Positions 135-33,922 of a stretch of 64,000 nucleotides of DNA are shown one piece after another. Origin of the DNA: a virus. Its lineage: Duplodnaviria > Heunggongvirae > Uroviricota > Caudoviricetes. The notes under the pieces are model-generated. The model did not search any database and had not been told where the DNA came from. It worked only from the letters and a program-made list of their open reading frames with translations. Position 1 is the stretch's first letter. The number at the start of each line of letters is the position of its first letter. Both the position numbers and the translations under genes were made by a program. The stretch lies in IMG/VR virus record IMGVR_UViG_2690316311_000019; one strand, given 5' to 3'.

Positions 135-3100
135 AAGAGCTGTGCTATGGATCTGTTTGCAGTGGAATTGAAGCCGCGAGTATTGCCTGGGAACCGTTGG
201 GTATGCGTCCGGCGTGGTTTGCTGAAATCGAGCCTTTTCCATCGGCCGTTCTTGCGCTCCGCTGGCCCCATGTTGCCAACCTTGGCGACATGAAAAAACT
301 TGCCAAAAAAGTCTTGGCTGGGGAAATCGAATCCCCTGACGTGCTCGTCGGGGGAACACCATGTTTTACCGCGGGGCATATGGTTCTTTGTAAAAATGGC
401 TATAAACCAATAGAAAATGTTTGCCCTGGTGATTACGTAGTCAGTCATCTCGGGCGGTTACAACAAGTAAAAAGAGTTGGTTCAAAAATAGCTAATACGG
501 GGTTACTTAATGCCGTTGGGCAGCCTTTAGGTATAAGAACAACCAATGACCATCCCTTCCTGGCTGTTCGGTGGAAAGCCCAAAACACCCGGAAAAATGG
601 CACATATTTTAAGAGAGAGTTGTTGTCTGAACCGGAATGGCGAGCAGCATGTGATATGCCGGGATATCAATGGTGCGCTCTAACTAATTTCAATATTGCA
701 TTTCCAGATATTTGTTCTCGGTTCTTGTCTGAAGAACAGGCTATGTATCTTGCGGGCGCTTATGTTGGCGATGGATATATTAGGAGATGGAGAGGTAAAT
801 CTAAGAAGGCGGTTGTTTTTGGCATAAATTGCCAGAAATTGAGAAAGTTTCATTGCCGCATACCAGAAAACATATTTTCCGTGGCAAGCGAAATCCGAGG
901 GAGCATCAAAGTAACCTTGAATGATACGTGTTATGCCAATTGGCTTAATGAACATTTTGGCGAGTTAAGCCATGCTAAGCGTATCCCTGCATGGGTGATG
1001 TCGCATCCATTGCGTCATGTGTTTTTACAAGGCTATCTTGATACTGATGGGACACCAAGTGGTAAAGCGGGATTTAGAATTAATAGTGTTAGTTCTGCGC
1101 TTGCTTGGGGCGTTGCGGGGTTGTCACAGACTTGTGGTTATGTTTCTTCGGTCAGCTTTATTGAAGTTGAGCCCAAAAAAGTGATCGAGGATCGCGTGGT
1201 AAATCAACGGAATTATTATCAGGTAACAATCTGCCCGCAGAAATTGTCACGTAAATCAAGATTGGCTCATGGAATGCTTTTACGAACAGTCAAAGAGTTT
1301 AAATCGGTAGGCCTAGATACTGTATACAACATAGAAGTCGAAGGTGATCATTCCTATATCCTCAATGGTGCGGTGGTCCATAACTGTCAGGCATTCAGTA
1401 TCGCGGGATTACGTGGTGGGCTTGATGATGAGCGTGGCGCGCTAACTTTAAAGTATGTGGAGTTTGCAAATGCAATTGACGACAAACGGGCTGAGTCATT
1501 TCTCAAACCAGCCGTTATCGTCTGGGAAAATGTCCCAGGAGTCTTGTCATCGGCAGATAACGCCTTCGGATGTTTCCTTGCCGGATTGGCTGGAGAAGAT
1601 GTGCCATTTGAACCAGGTGATCGACCTGAATCAGGAAAAAGCAACGCGTTCTGGCGGTGGGATGGCAAAACCGGTTGCCATGTTCCAAAGTGGCCGCAGT
1701 GTGGTTGTATTTATGGACCGCAGCGAAAAGTGGCCTGGAGAATCCTTGATGCCCAATACTTCGGAGTGGCACAACGACGCCGACGCGTGTTTGTTGTCGC
1801 AAGTGCTCGAACAGATCTCGATCCCGCAACGGTACTTTTTGAGTTCGAAGGCGTGCGCCGGAATATTGCGCCGAGCAGAGGCGAGGGGAAGGAAACTACC
1901 AGATATACTTCAAACATCGCTATCAGAACTTGCGATGATACAAACATAATTGCCATGGCACATGGGCAAGGAGGGGCTGAGATAAAAACCGATAATTCGG
2001 CACCAACTTTGACATGTAACCATGAAGCACCAATTGTATTGCTCGGCGACGGTAGAATGCGCCGTCTTACCCCTGTCGAATGTGAAAGGCTGCAAGGTTT
2101 TCCTGATTGGCATACGTTGATCCCTACGGAAAAGCGTAAAAAAGTTAATTCAGATGAACTGGCATATCTGCACAATCACTATCCAGATTTAAGCGAAGAA
2201 GAGGCCGCAATGCTTGCAGCTGACGGACCGCGTTACAAAGCGATCGGCAATAGTATGGCAATACCAGTAATGCGCTGGATTGGCGATCGGATTACTAAGG
2301 CCGTATGTCGGCAGAAAGAAGGAAGTGAAACAAAAGAGCGAAAAGTTAAACCAGCGGCAGAATTCGAACGGTCCATATTCAAATGGGCTGGTGGAAAATT
2401 TGGTGTTCTGGAACAAATCTTTCGCTATTTGCCAGAAGGGAAGCGCCTGATTGAACCTTTCGTTGGTGGCGGAGCTGTCTTCATGAATGCCGGATACCAG
2501 GAAAATCTGCTAAATGATGTGAATGCTGACCTGATTAACTTTTACAAGACTCTGCAACGCGAGGCGCATTCACTTATCACTCTGGCACATCGTTTCTTCC
2601 AGGACTACAACACACAGGAAGGATACCTGGCAGTACGGAATGCGTTTAACAAACAAGTCTATGATGATTTACATCGCGCAGCGGCGTTTTTGTTCCTGAA
2701 CCGACATTGTTTTAACGGATTGACGCGTTACAACCAGGCCGGTGAGTTCAATGTCGGTTATGGGAAGTATAAAACTCCGTATTTCCCATTACAGGAGATG
2801 GAAGCCTTCCTCGGTGCGGAAGGGCGGTCTGAGTTTGTATGCGGTGATTTTGCAGCGGTGATTGAAGCTGCCGGAGAAGGAGATGTCATCTTTTGCGATC
2901 CGCCGTATGAACCGCTTCCAAATACAGAGGGATTCACGAACTATTCCGGTCATGACTTTAAGTTTGAAGAGCAAAAACGCCTGGTGTCTCTGTTGACGGA
3001 TGCTCATCGTCGAGGTGCAAAGGTTCTCATTACTAACAGTGGCGCGCCAAACATCAGAGAGCTTTATCATGACAGTGGCTTCAGAGTGGAACCTCTTTTT

Positions 3101-3172
3101 GCCAGACGTTCTGTGTCTTGTAAGGGGGACACTCGAGGTGTAGCTCATGACGTTTTGGGTATATTGCTCTAA
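131..3172 (+). CDS. dmt: Bifunctional DNA methyltransferase: N-terminal C5-cytosine MTase domain (interrupted by an intein) fused to C-terminal Dam-like N6-adenine MTase domain
   Basis: C5-MTase motifs (GGTP|[10 protein letters not shown] motif, [23 protein letters not shown]) and Dam motifs ([21 protein letters not shown]); position and architecture match P1 dmt. Confidence 0.88.
362..1384 (+). other. Intein (341 aa) with LAGLIDADG homing endonuclease, inserted between Pro and catalytic Cys of the C5-MTase PC motif
   Basis: Starts CFTAGH (block A), TTNDHPF (block B), two LAGLIDADG motifs ([23 protein letters not shown]), ends VVHN followed by Cys+1; lower GC than flanks. Confidence 0.85.
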
Positions 3173-3179
3173 TAAATTT
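3163..3179 (+). promoter_or_regulatory. C1 repressor operator (ATTGCTCTAATAAATTT) overlapping dmt stop codon
   Basis: Exact match to the P1 C1 operator consensus. Confidence 0.75.
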
Positions 3180-3353
3180 ATTAGTGTAATATCACCTCAA
3201 TGAATCGTGATTTATAGAGCGATTTAGCTGTTAGCCGCGACAGGCGCGGCGGTAAGCATGGCTGGGCCTAGTCCTCCCAGACAAACCACCGAGTTGCCAG
3301 GTTGACCATGCGCCTAAGTGGCAACGCCGAAGTGCGTTACGAGCGTCCAGTTT

Positions 3354-3379
3354 GCCCATCTTCGGGTGGGCGTTTTTTT
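3354..3379 (+). terminator. Rho-independent terminator-like hairpin plus T7 run
   Basis: gcccatc-ttcg-ggtgggc stem-loop followed by ttttttt. Confidence 0.55.
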
Positions 3380-3844
3380 CAGGGTTTTCGTCATGGTTAG
3401 CGACTTTGCGGCGGTTTAGAAACTGACCATTAAAGTAAATGCAAACGATGATCTGATGATGGTAGCGGCCTAAGAAGCCAGATGCCATGGGGTATGAGTC
3501 GTCCCCCGTCAAAAAATCGACCGCAGAGTGTCCCCGTCTGTGTATTAGGGAACGGGGAGGCACAACAGGTAAGGGCGCTGGTGTGATTAACCAGATGAAC
3601 GAGAAGGGGCCATCTGTTGGTCAGCGTCCTTTCCTGTTGCGTTTTCTTTTCAGCGTAACAGCGGTGCTTAACAGCACTTTGGGTACAGTTCCACGAATTT
3701 ACGGGTATATCCCGTCATGCTGAAGGCGCTAATCACGCTGGAAGCCAGGGTTATGCATCCCCTGTTACCGAATTGCAGCCAGGGCGCGGTGCGCCGAAAA
3801 GCATACGGAGGTGGAAGCCCTCGCCGGAGACGTACCCGGCAAGT

Positions 3845-3918
3845 GATGGTGTAGCTCAGCGGTAGAGCAGTTGGCTGTTAACCAACTGGTCGGTAGTTCG
3901 AATCCACCCACCATCGCC
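3845..3918 (+). tRNA. trnA: tRNA-Asn (anticodon GUU)
   Basis: Manual cloverleaf: 7-bp acceptor GATGGTG/CACCATC, D-arm GCTC/GAGC, anticodon loop CTGTTAA, T-loop TTCGAAT, CCA end. Confidence 0.85.
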
Positions 3919-3923
3919 ACTTT

Positions 3924-4010
3924 AGGGGAGTTAGTCCGTAGGGGTAGCGGGGTAGACTGTAAATCTACTGTCATTGCGACTCGGGTGGTTCGACTCCATC
4001 ACTCCCCACC
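3924..4010 (+). tRNA. Type II tRNA-like gene, anticodon GUA (Tyr-like), long variable arm; D-arm atypical
   Basis: Acceptor GGGGAGT/ACTCCCC, anticodon stem GTAGA/TCTAC with loop CTGTAAA, 15-nt variable arm, T-arm GGTGG-TTCGACT-CCATC, CCA end. Confidence 0.55.
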
Positions 4011-4014
4011 ACAT

Positions 4015-4090
4015 TGCCGATTTAGCTCAGTTGGTAGAGCAGTCGCTTTGTAAGCGAATGGTCAGCGGTTCGATCCCGTTAATCGGCACC
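4015..4090 (+). tRNA. trnT: tRNA-Thr (anticodon UGU)
   Basis: Acceptor GCCGATT/AATCGGC, D-arm GCTC/GAGC, anticodon loop TTTGTAA, T-loop TTCGATC, CCA end. Confidence 0.85.
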
Positions 4091-4095
4091 AACAT

Positions 4096-4170
4096 AACAG
4101 GTAAGAGCATTCTCCCTTATGGGGCCTGGCTTAAATGCATCGAGTGCTCTTACCGTTGTGATGAAGTGCA
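4096..4170 (+). repeat. Structured repeat copy A (long hairpin ggtaagagca...tgctcttacc, then cgttgtgatgaagtgc tail)
   Basis: Shares 5' module acaggtaagagcattctcc and 3' tail with copy C; starts right after tRNA-Thr. Confidence 0.55.
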
Positions 4171-4466
4171 GATCTTAGAAGCAACCAGAAGATAAGCATC
4201 TGGCTTCACAACATAAACCGCAGGAACGACCAATAAACGGTAGTCCGTATGGAGAACACCCCGTTGAGGAAGAGGCCTGGCCGGAACCGTAACCGGCGAC
4301 TGGTAATGTGTGTAAATGGAGCGAAATATGTGGGCGTTTAACGGGATACGGGTTGTAACAGCGATTATTAACGGCGAACTTAAGTATTCACGTTTCGAGA
4401 CAAATGAACGTGATGGGAAATGTATTGGTGTGCGGTTAGTAAGAGAATACGCATAACAACTACAAC

Positions 4467-4964: not shown

Positions 4965-5201
4965 ATGCAGAACAATCCGAACAAATGTCGAACGCTATGG
5001 GTGCGGTTATATATTTATGCCGTCCTCTGTTTGATTGTGTCACTGGTTCTGTATGTTTGGCTTTTGCCAAATATGATCTCATCTAACAGCACAATACTTG
5101 TATTGTTGGGAGTCCTTCTCGCGCTCATTTACCCGGCTTTCGCAGTAGTCTTTTTTCGTGAAAAAACCAGGAAATTAATTAATGAAAAAAACGTTGATTA
5201 G
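4965..5201 (+). CDS. upl: Small membrane protein (two predicted TM helices), upstream of plp
   Basis: ORF with GGAG/GAGG RBS; hydrophobic segments; position as in P1 upl. Confidence 0.55.
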   Translation: MQNNPNKCRTLWVRLYIYAVLCLIVSLVLYVWLLPNMISSNSTILVLLGVLLALIYPAFAVVFFREKTRKLINEKNVD

Positions 5202-6009
5202 TGCAGCGATTATTTTGGGTTCTTTATGTCTGACCGGATGCGATCGGGTAGAGCCAGGTAACGTAGGGATCAAAGTAAATAAGCTGGGGGATGATAAAGG
5301 TATCGGTGAAGTAGTTGGCGTTGGTCGCTACTGGACAGGCTTGAATACTGAAGTTTATATCTTCCCGACCTTTAAGCAAATGAAGACATACGATGAGCCG
5401 TTCAGCTTCCAGATGAGCGACGGAACAACCATTGGTTACCACATCGGCGTAGCCTACAAGGTTGATCCAGCAAAAGTCACAACGGTATTTCAGACCTATC
5501 GCAAAGGTGTAGATGATATTACTGATACCGATCTACGCCAGAAGGTTGCAGATGCTCTGAACCGATTAGCCAGCAAAATGACCACCGACAAATTTATCGA
5601 CGGTGGCAAATCTGAATTGCTTGATGCAGCCCTTAAAGACATTCAGGAAGAAATGACGCCAATCGGCATTCAGGTGATGAGCCTCTCTTATGTAGGTAAG
5701 CCAGAATACCCGCCAACAGTTATTGACAGTATTAACGCCAAAGTCACGGCAAACCAAAAAACCCTGCAACGCGAGCAAGAGGTCAAACAACGTGAAGCAG
5801 AGGCCAACATGCTGCGCGCGGAAGCTGCCGGACAGGCTGATGCTATTCGCACAAAAGCCCAGGCCGAAGCTGATGCCATTCGTTTACGTGGTGAAGCTCT
5901 GCGCCAGAACCCCGGTGTTATGGACTTGGAAGCGATCAACAAATGGAACGGTACATTACCGCAGTATATGACCAGTAATACCGCTGTTCCGTTTGTTCCG
6001 GTGAAATAA
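5182..6009 (+). CDS. plp: Lipoprotein with SPFH/band-7-like domain
   Basis: Signal peptide with lipobox LTGC, coiled-coil C-terminus; P1 plp position. Confidence 0.75.
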   Translation: MKKTLISAAIILGSLCLTGCDRVEPGNVGIKVNKLGDDKGIGEVVGVGRYWTGLNTEVYIFPTFKQMKTYDEPFSFQMSDGTTIGYHIGVAYKVDPAKVTTVFQTYRKGVDDITDTDLRQKVADALNRLASKMTTDKFIDGGKSELLDAALKDIQEEMTPIGIQVMSLSYVGKPEYPPTVIDSINAKVTANQKTLQREQEVKQREAEANMLRAEAAGQADAIRTKAQAEADAIRLRGEALRQNPGVMDLEAINKWNGTLPQYMTSNTAVPFVPVK

Positions 6010-6036: not shown

Positions 6037-6112
6037 GGCCCTTTAGCTCAGTGGTTAGAGCTGGCGACTCATAATCGCACGGTCACCGGTTCAAGTCCGG
6101 TAGGGGCCACCA
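6037..6112 (+). tRNA. trnI: tRNA with anticodon CAU, strongly resembling E. coli ileX (tRNA-Ile2, lysidine)
   Basis: Acceptor GGCCCTT/AGGGGCC, anticodon loop CTCATAA, T-loop TTCAAGT, CCA end; near-identity to ileX by recall. Confidence 0.85.
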
Positions 6113-33602: not shown

Positions 33603-33922
33603 GTGTTTTTTAGCTACCGATGTTACATTGAACCTGACCTCTTGCGCCTTGAGGCATTTTCGGTTTATGCTTATCAGGCACCTCATTAAAACGGGTGCCG
33701 GGATTGGCCTCCCGCTTAAGTCTAAGGCGATACAGACGCCGCTCGCGTCTTTTTTTGTATCGGCGTACACGCACACCTCTACAATGGTGGGCTGTATGGG
33801 GCTACCTTCGGGTAGGCTGGTTACCTTGGACGCCAGTAAGGCCAACTCCGTACAGTCCACCGCCAGCAAGATTGGTCTCTTCTGCGGTGGTTACATACCA
33901 ACGTCTAAGGAGGCTGCCAATA

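Follow-up and report, generated by a model that had tools for sequence, protein, structure and literature searches.

The P1 group of phages is usually credited with three tRNAs, and it has a common variant that carries a fourth, for tyrosine. Here, we describe this fourth tRNA in the window, by which we mean the whole 64,000-nucleotide stretch of phage DNA that was analysed. The reading that we favor, at a probability of roughly 0.55, is that the gene encodes a functional tRNA-Tyr of a phage family, that it was gained by exchange of a block of tRNA genes, and that its likeliest role is to buffer the phage against host defenses that deplete tRNA-Tyr. GenBank and RefSeq records already annotate the gene, which is of a known kind, a phage tRNA-Tyr, and the understanding of tRNAs or of P1 is unchanged by it. 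Should its function prove to match that of the tRNA-Tyr genes of phages T6 and T5, the temperate phage-plasmids common in Shiga-toxin-producing Escherichia coli would also practice tRNA-based counter-defense. If so, the tRNA block of the P1 group would represent a swappable accessory locus.

Four tRNA genes were identified in the window, and the same four were found independently by ARAGORN and by Rfam RF00005 (Table 1). The original prediction, made by folding the sequence by hand, had placed tRNA-Asn(GUU), a type II gene with the anticodon GUA, and tRNA-Thr(UGU) in that order, with tRNA-Ile(CAU) further downstream. Both programs recover this arrangement, with coordinates that depart by at most 1 nt for the first three genes and that coincide for the fourth. 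Specifically, ARAGORN, which had been proposed as a check on 3800..4100, reports tRNA-Tyr(gta) at 3925-4011. The CAT-anticodon gene has exactly the sequence of P1 trnI, labeled tRNA-Ile2 in NC_005856 (lysidine type according to the P1 annotation). The original prediction also gave P1 only Asn, Thr, and Ile tRNAs, and NC_005856 indeed contains trnI together with tRNA-Asn and tRNA-Thr, which are separated by 2 nt. Against Rfam RF00005, scores of 65-70 bits were obtained for the Asn, Thr, and CAT genes. The tRNA-Tyr gene is the lowest of the four, with a score of 41.9 bits (gathering score 29, E = 1.7e-05).

Table 1. Regulatory elements, tRNA genes, and parts of the tRNA-Tyr gene in the window.
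Feature	Position	Strand	Details
Bivalent C1 repressor operator (P1 Op72/Oban), overlapping the P1ban/P2ban promoters	3163..3190	+	two overlapping inverted ATTGCTCTAATAAATTT matches
Terminator-like hairpin and T-run, end of dicF-like region	3353..3379	+	8-bp stem, then T7
tRNA-Asn(GUU), non-P1 allele	3845..3919	+	ARAGORN; Rfam RF00005, 69.9 bits
tRNA-Tyr(GUA), type II, 87 nt including encoded CCA	3925..4011	+	ARAGORN; Rfam RF00005
tRNA-Tyr acceptor stem, 7 bp	3925-3931/4001-4007	+	
tRNA-Tyr 4-nt linker	3932-3935	+	UAGU
tRNA-Tyr D stem	3936-3939/3947-3950	+	D loop 3940-3946
tRNA-Tyr anticodon stem, 5 bp	3952-3956/3964-3968	+	anticodon GTA 3959-3961
tRNA-Tyr variable arm	3969-3983	+	T arm 3984-4000
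C48/A49 (raw numbering) in tRNA-Tyr variable arm	3972..3973	+	equivalent of the Septu cleavage site
tRNA-Tyr discriminator A	4008	+	CCA 4009-4011
tRNA-Thr(UGU), non-P1 allele	4016..4091	+	ARAGORN; Rfam RF00005, 67.8 bits
CAT-anticodon tRNA	6037..6112	+	ARAGORN; Rfam RF00005; sequence of P1 trnI

The tRNA-Tyr gene possesses the sequence features of a bacterial-type tyrosine tRNA. Tyrosine identity depends on A73, U35, and, in bacteria, the G1-C72 pair (PMC9976931). All of these elements are present, as A4008, the U at 3960, and G3925-C4007, respectively, and because they are intact, charging of the tRNA by the host TyrRS would be expected. The 7-nt anticodon loop, CUGUAAA (3957-3963), presents GUA together with U33 and A37. 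The variable region, of 15 nt, consists of a 3-bp GUC/GAC stem and a 5-nt loop, and this stem is 89% paired across relatives. The T stem is GGUGG/CCAUC, the T loop is UUCGACU, and G18G19 are present. The unconstrained minimum free energy (MFE) fold is a cloverleaf that matches the Infernal structure. The fold z-score, at -1.0, is uninformative, as is usual for tRNAs. Taken as a whole, 3925-4011 is very probably a working tRNA gene and not a pseudogene.

The D arm is the unusual part of the molecule. The original prediction had called it irregular, and the irregularity is real, but the two programs draw it differently: ARAGORN draws a 2-nt linker, a D stem of only 2 bp, and a 3-nt bulge, and Infernal inserts 2 extra nt after U8-A9, followed by a 4-bp CCGU/GCGG stem. 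In the Infernal register, the D loop is the 7-nt AGGGGUA, with A14, G18G19, and A21. Thus, the canonical 2-nt connector (U8, N9) is replaced in the window tRNA-Tyr by the four nucleotides UAGU ahead of the D stem. In canonical tRNAs, the acceptor stem is joined to the D stem by 2 nt, and the exceptions listed in a review of natural non-canonical tRNAs are tRNA-Pyl, with 0-1 nt, and the allo-tRNA-like molecules, with an extra loop (PMC7609411). That one review makes no mention of phage tRNA-Tyr among its natural non-canonical tRNAs.

The comparison of relatives decides between the two drawings of the D arm. Relatives were type II GUA tRNAs collected from IMG/VR with three pattern scans. The second scan fixed CCGTA and AGCGG, and therefore it is unable to reveal covariation in the D stem and was left out of that question; the third scan, anchored only on the anticodon loop and the T loop, was added. 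A structure parser assigns the window gene to class (4,4,1), that is, a 4-nt linker, a 4-bp D stem, and a 1-nt spacer. This class comprises 73 distinct sequences, of which 24 were recovered by scans that left the D arm unconstrained, and a long linker occurs in 26/173 of the unbiased distinct sequences (24 with 4 nt and 2 with 5 nt). Its layout is a 7-bp acceptor stem, UA plus 2 nt, a 4-bp D stem, a D loop of 7-8 nt with A14, GG, and A21, and a single nucleotide ahead of the anticodon stem. The window tRNA-Tyr fits this layout. The two extra nucleotides of the linker vary among members (GU, UC, UA, UU, GA, AC, AA), and CUCG is constant. Inspection by eye for covariation of the two linker nucleotides with the variable region, on its 3' side, revealed no evident pairing partner.

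Across 22 unbiased relatives, 96.2% of cells are paired, and double changes occur at 20/24 pairs. Compensatory changes are found in all five helices, and 0/500 shuffles and no slid control reach the observed values. For the D stem that follows the 4-nt linker, pairing in the 22 relatives reaches 93%, with double changes at 4/4 pairs, a percentage that is inflated for this helix by the parser's having chosen the 22 sequences on structure but that still leaves the comparison of registers clear. The alternative D stem drawn by ARAGORN is paired in 26% of cells across relatives. Because of this disparity, 26% as against 93% for the Infernal and MFE register, the ARAGORN drawing was rejected. Compensated variants of the D stem among the unbiased members are CCGU/GCGG, CUGU/GCAG, CGGU/GCCG, CCCG/CGGG, and CCGC/GCGG.

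The D arm with a 4-nt linker is a family trait of phage tRNA-Tyr, present in T-even, rV5-like, and T5-like phages and in phage-plasmids. Matches to the window gene occur in 1,524 phage records, with homology over the full length and identity of 89-93% to the T-even and rV5-like genes and ~80% to the T5-like genes. The same 4-nt-linker design is seen in the tRNA-Tyr genes of T6, of the rV5-like phage MaxTheCat, and of the T5-like phage poul124. As a structural matter, the linker is a small curiosity, and tRNA gene finders cope badly with it, conserved as it is. It may explain why real phage tRNA-Tyr genes score low and why the T6 gene misses the Rfam gathering score. For comparison, Rfam gives 53.4 bits to E. 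coli tyrT and tyrV and does not report the T6 tRNA-Tyr, which falls below the gathering score. Since the T6 tRNA-Tyr is expressed and misses the gathering score altogether, the modest Rfam score of the window gene is no sign of a pseudogene.

These comparisons also bear on a choice that the original prediction had left standing, between a pseudo-tRNA and an unusual but functional tRNA. A relic that goes unprocessed or uncharged owing to its irregular D arm could account for the lowest Rfam score of the four genes, for the mere 2 bp that ARAGORN pairs in the D stem, and for a linker that departs from the canonical 2 nt. Nonetheless, the same architecture occurs in the expressed and active T6 tRNA-Tyr, which scores lower still on Rfam, the D stem covaries, the nucleotides required for identity and for tertiary interactions are intact, and the MFE fold is a cloverleaf. 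The functional alternative is thus the one that stands, and we judge a pseudo-tRNA to be very improbable.

The sequence is not peculiar to the window. The 701 bases from 3600 to 4300 are 100% identical to Escherichia phage vB_EcoM-Ro157c2YLVW (MH160767 / NC_050153), a Punavirus (P1-like) isolated from an STEC O157 host, and the MH160767 record annotates tRNA-Asn, tRNA-Tyr, tRNA-Thr, and tRNA-Met(cat). A literature search on the name of this phage and on P1-like tRNA-Tyr retrieved no paper. The full Asn-Tyr-Thr stretch occurs in ~99/5,426 complete E. coli genomes, many of which are of serogroups O111, O26, and O157, and PGAP annotates tRNA-Tyr in them. Regarding plasmids, the full Asn-Tyr-Thr stretch is present in 99 of 749 matching records (~13%). 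The 87-nt Tyr gene occurs in 244 plasmid records, which fall at ~90-100 kb (P1-type) and at ~108-111 kb (the CMS-2020a class).

The tRNA block of the window occupies the Punavirus tRNA locus, which lies between dmt/Op72 and ban; its flanks are of the P1 type, and trnI is present. The 750 bp upstream of tRNA-Asn, encompassing the end of dmt, Op72, P1ban/P2ban, and the dicF-like region, are ~99% identical to P1. Phage P1 itself (trnA Asn, trnT Thr, trnI Ile; NC_005856) has its tRNAs at the same position, from dmt/Op72 to ban, and an identical trnI, but it lacks the Tyr gene, and the window tRNA-Asn and tRNA-Thr are other alleles. P1 and P7 align to 3600-4300 in two pieces, with Asn and Thr only. 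The window tRNA-Asn shares 88.2% identity with its P1 counterpart, 98.7% with the CMS-2020a gene, and 94.7% with the gene of an N4-like phage; for tRNA-Thr, identity is 82.9% to P1 and 98.7% to CMS-2020a. The flanks of CMS-2020a are unrelated to the window flanks. Block exchange is indicated because the flank is ~99% P1 and yet the tRNA block is 98.7% CMS-2020a. N4-like phages possess an analogous arrangement, Asn-Ser(UGA)-Thr, in which the central gene is again a type II tRNA and the A/T-rich spacers, of 4-5 nt, are almost the same; however, this central gene is Ser(UGA) instead of Tyr, and identity of the Thr gene to that of the window is only 79%.

The direction of the exchange can be read from the relatives that lack the Tyr gene. 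P1, P7, D6, SJ46, and JL22 have Asn-AT-Thr only at the locus, and their genes are identical or near-identical. On the simplest reading of these sequences, Asn-Thr would be the ancestral state in the P1 group, and the lineage represented by the window would have swapped this pair for an imported Asn-Tyr-Thr block. The donor was presumably another phage or phage-plasmid lineage acting through recombination, and CMS-2020a is the closest match. A reverse scenario, in which P1 lost the Tyr gene through CCA-CCA slippage, was considered and rejected. Slippage predicts a spacer of AATT or CATT, and all Tyr-less relatives have AT. Deletion in P1 is also contradicted by the flanking Asn and Thr genes, which are different alleles. 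Thus, the AT spacer and the differing alleles make gain by block replacement more parsimonious than deletion.

Exchange extends to the individual genes of the block. The P1-type plasmid CP012494 carries a window-type Asn, Tyr, and a P1-type Thr, and the P1-type plasmid CP027309 carries Arg(UCU), Tyr, a P1-type Thr, and an extra Ser(UGA). Across three different mosaic contexts of P1-type plasmids, the Tyr gene shows 100% identity. Among IMG/VR records, the family Tyr gene is flanked by Asn and Thr in 15 loci, with Arg in place of Asn in another 3. These swaps of neighbors (Asn or Arg; P1- or CMS-type Thr) show that the tRNA block behaves as a modular, recombining cassette. Mosaicism of this kind, with crossovers between individual tRNA genes (Asn/Arg upstream, P1- or CMS-type Thr downstream), would also suit a functional passenger that is unselected in P1-like phages and merely hitch-hikes in the block, as would the restriction of the complete block to only about an eighth of the matching P1-type plasmids. 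We consider such a passenger improbable. A Tyr gene that remains 100% identical while its neighbors are exchanged is the pattern that selection-driven retention would give, and the gene is common to two phage-plasmid lineages and their 244 records.

Regarding expression, the only transcription start annotated ahead of the tRNA block is that of P1ban/P2ban; the annotation comes from P1, to which the region is ~99% identical. The C1-controlled Pban region lies ~650 nt upstream of the block, in which the tRNA-Tyr gene is single-copy. The hairpin at 3353..3379, which corresponds to the P1 "dicF-like region," sits between Pban and the tRNA genes. A strict sigma-70 consensus scan of 3100-4400 found no promoter. 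Since the block is located downstream of C1-repressed promoters, the P1 annotation leads one to expect that it is silent in the lysogen and on at derepression. Transcription would then proceed into the tRNA block, ~650 nt past the ban promoters, upon derepression of the prophage or upon infection. The tRNA-Tyr transcript would be excised by host RNase P and the 3' processing enzymes, and the mature tRNA would be charged by the host TyrRS.

What the phage might gain from such a tRNA can be approached through codon usage, which was counted in the window open reading frames (ORFs) of at least 150 aa and compared with a 50-kb E. coli K-12 sample. To supply codons in demand is the classic proposal for the P1 Asn, Thr(ACA), and Ile(AUA) tRNAs, and tRNA-Tyr could be kept for the same purpose, translation capacity, with no link to host defense. 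The codons that match the three classic P1 tRNAs are indeed enriched in the window: ACA occurs at 11.5 per 1000 as against 5.0 in the K-12 sample (2.3-fold), AUA at 11.4 as against 3.1 (3.7-fold), and Asn (AAU + AAC) at 46.0 as against 35.3 (1.3-fold). Tyr codons (UAU + UAC) are slightly elevated, at 30.7 per 1000 as against 27.0, and some window ORFs have 44-47 Tyr per 1000. Nevertheless, the Tyr excess amounts to only ~14% and is spread without an obvious gene class; a search among the window ORFs for a Tyr-rich class found none that was striking. On these grounds, codon compensation was rejected as the main driver. Furthermore, with tyrT and tyrV, the tRNA-Tyr genes of E. coli K-12 number two or more, and with a host so equipped and Tyr codon frequencies that are similar in phage and host, a shortage of tRNA-Tyr is unlikely. 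The Tyr gene is, in addition, absent from most P1 relatives. Retention for codon demand alone is therefore somewhat unlikely in our estimation, and because Tyr codons are only ~14% up, buffering against defenses that deplete tRNA-Tyr is the likelier role.

The case for defense buffering draws on two bacterial systems. In the variable arm of E. coli tRNA-Tyr, Septu EcB88 cleaves at C48/A49, and in T6 tRNA-Tyr it cleaves at C48 (PMC13096335). T6 escapes Septu by raising the dosage of its tRNA-Tyr, and T4, which is without the gene, cannot escape (PMC13096335). Likewise, the PtuAB of retron-Eco7 depletes host tRNA-Tyr, and the T5-family tRNA-Tyr rescues the phage, in a manner that requires its anticodon and stems (PMC11555353). 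Direct cleavage by PtuAB is disputed, as purified Ec78 PtuAB left tRNA-Tyr uncut in vitro. According to both the T5 and the T6 work, high dosage is what rescues (PMC11555353, PMC13096335).

In the window tRNA-Tyr, the GUCAU around the equivalent of the Septu site is identical to the sequence in T6 and in E. coli tyrT, and cleavage by Septu at 3972-3973 is predicted from this identity. The variable loop is not of the cleavage-resistant T5 type; its GUC|AU site is that of the E. coli tyrT and T6 molecules, which are cleaved. Thus, any counter-defense action would be that of a supplement or a decoy and not that of a resistant variant. Moreover, the cleavage site does not differ from that of the host tRNA, and so a gene present in one copy may protect only weakly. 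The role that we propose is that the tRNA-Tyr would add capacity for tyrosine decoding during lytic growth and would thereby buffer the phage against Septu PtuAB and retron-Eco7. By analogy with T6 and T5, we put the involvement of the window gene in an arms race with tRNA-Tyr-depleting defenses at about even odds. Single copy number, promoter strength, and the in vitro result for Ec78 PtuAB are the considerations that weigh against a counter-defense role.

We speculate further on the linker. The 4-nt connector could be a phage-specific, non-canonical tRNA-Tyr design that evolved to alter recognition by host nucleases or by the modification enzymes of U8, G18, or the D arm and that remains acceptable to TyrRS and the ribosome, and temperate P1-like and CMS-2020a-like phage-plasmids could be trading the gene, within an Asn/Arg-Tyr-Thr block, as anti-defense cargo. 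We regard this extension as doubtful. If true, tRNA blocks would constitute a counter-defense accessory locus of phage-plasmids.

Comparison with the host and with the phages in which tRNA-Tyr has been studied places the window gene in context. E. coli tyrT and tyrV are, like the window gene, type II, with the loop CUGUAAA, G1-C72, A73, CCA, and a 3-bp GUC/GAC variable stem. The two differ in the D arm, which in E. coli has a 2-nt linker, a stem of 3-4 bp (CCC(G)/(A)GGG), and an 11-nt loop, and in the window has the 4-nt linker, the CCGU/GCGG stem, and a 7-nt loop. They differ also in the variable loop, of 5 nt in the window gene versus 3 nt in tyrT and tyrV. The window and E. coli genes are alignable only from the anticodon arm onward, with ~75% identity over 60 nt. 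Because the connector is longer by 2 nt but the D loop has 7 nt in place of 11, the anticodon nonetheless falls at raw position 35 in both the window gene and tyrT.

The T5-family tRNA-Tyr (SP15/T5) is also phage-encoded with the anticodon GUA, but it is only ~80% identical to the window gene. The T5-like poul124 gene possesses the 4-nt linker and a variable arm as in the window. The T5 tRNA-Tyr has been called resistant to cleavage by virtue of a distinctive variable loop (PMC13096335), and the SP15 gene is under a very strong promoter (PMC11555353). In contrast, the window gene keeps the host-like GUC|A site in its variable arm, and no strong promoter is evident.

Closest in design is the tRNA-Tyr of T6 (Tequatrovirus; MH550421 66473-66559), which is 89% identical and likewise 87 nt long. 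It has been seen on northern blots, and it rescues T6 from Septu when over-expressed or amplified (PMC13096335). The carriers differ: T6 is a virulent phage whose gene lies in a tRNA array beside the homing endonuclease SegB, which amplifies it, whereas the window gene belongs to a temperate P1-like phage-plasmid, in which it is single-copy and has no adjoining seg gene. The two tRNAs differ at two linker nucleotides, at position 26, and in the anticodon stem. They share the acceptor stem, the D arm with its 4-nt linker, the T loop, and the encoded A73 and CCA, and their variable arms are identical (UGUCAUUGCGACUCG).

Generic tRNA models may be prone to under-calling the phage tRNA-Tyr family, given that its members combine a 4-nt linker between the acceptor and D stems with a long variable arm. 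Specifically, at its gathering threshold Rfam RF00005 misses the experimentally validated tRNA-Tyr of phage T6 (6474-6560 in L125, the retrieved T6 stretch) yet detects all six tRNAs neighboring it. Other phage type II GUA tRNAs from IMG/VR appear to adopt further D-arm geometries, for example in stretches L025, L030, L043, L229, L231, and L258. In one of these, defined by a simple D-arm parse of genes collected by pattern scans, the linker is 3 nt long, the stem 4 bp, the D loop a tiny 5-6 nt, and the spacer 2 nt; the parse assigns 25 distinct sequences to this layout.

The tRNA block also varies among P1-type elements. Plasmid NZ_CP027309.1 harbors a tRNA-Arg(UCU), at 2566-2642 of its retrieved stretch L332, in the slot occupied by tRNA-Asn in the window. 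The two genes are identical in the acceptor stem and T arm and differ in the D loop and anticodon arm. Judged from sequence, the plasmid gene looks like an anticodon-arm swap on a scaffold shared with the Asn gene. The plasmid encodes an additional tRNA-Ser(UGA) approximately 435 nt 3' of the Thr gene.

Window positions 3287-3389, downstream of the ban promoters and ahead of the tRNA genes, are near-identical to the "dicF-like region" of P1. This segment ends in a terminator-like hairpin (3353-3372) followed by a T-run, and no Rfam family matches it at gathering score. Farther along, an isrK-type Hfq-binding RNA match lies directly 5' of a C4 antisense RNA; in P1-type phages, this site constitutes the immunity I region. 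Scanning the window with the C1 operator consensus ATTGCTCTAATAAATTT, allowing at most two mismatches, yields nine matches when 0.02 are expected by chance, an arrangement consistent with the dispersed C1 regulon known for P1.

Features of the window outside the tRNA block
Feature	Position	Strand	Evidence
78-aa ORF	4965-5201		
SPFH/Band 7 ORF	5182-6009	+	Pfam PF01145, E = 9.7e-31
isrK-type Hfq-binding RNA	33678-33755	+	Rfam, 60.8 bits
C4 antisense RNA	33780-33867	+	Rfam, 75.9 bits
C1 operator consensus matches	3163, 3174, 13626, 19391, 33587, 36700, 36783, 38811, 52630		

Downstream of the tRNA block, the ORF matching SPFH/Band 7 is labeled "putative serine protease" in MH160767 (phage vB_EcoM-Ro157c2YLVW), whereas its counterpart in a sister plasmid is named SPFH in RefSeq. 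P1 carries tciA, tciB, and tciC where the window has this ORF and the 78-aa ORF.

A comparable tRNA block exists in N4-like phages, including vB_EcoP_3HA13 (1501-1750 of its stretch, L004) and other N4 records. In several N4 records, the tRNAs of this block carry no annotation. The N4-like order is Asn-Ser(UGA)-Thr, whereas that of the window is Asn-Tyr-Thr. The two blocks have closely matching A/T-rich spacers of 4-5 nt, and their Asn genes are 94.7% identical.
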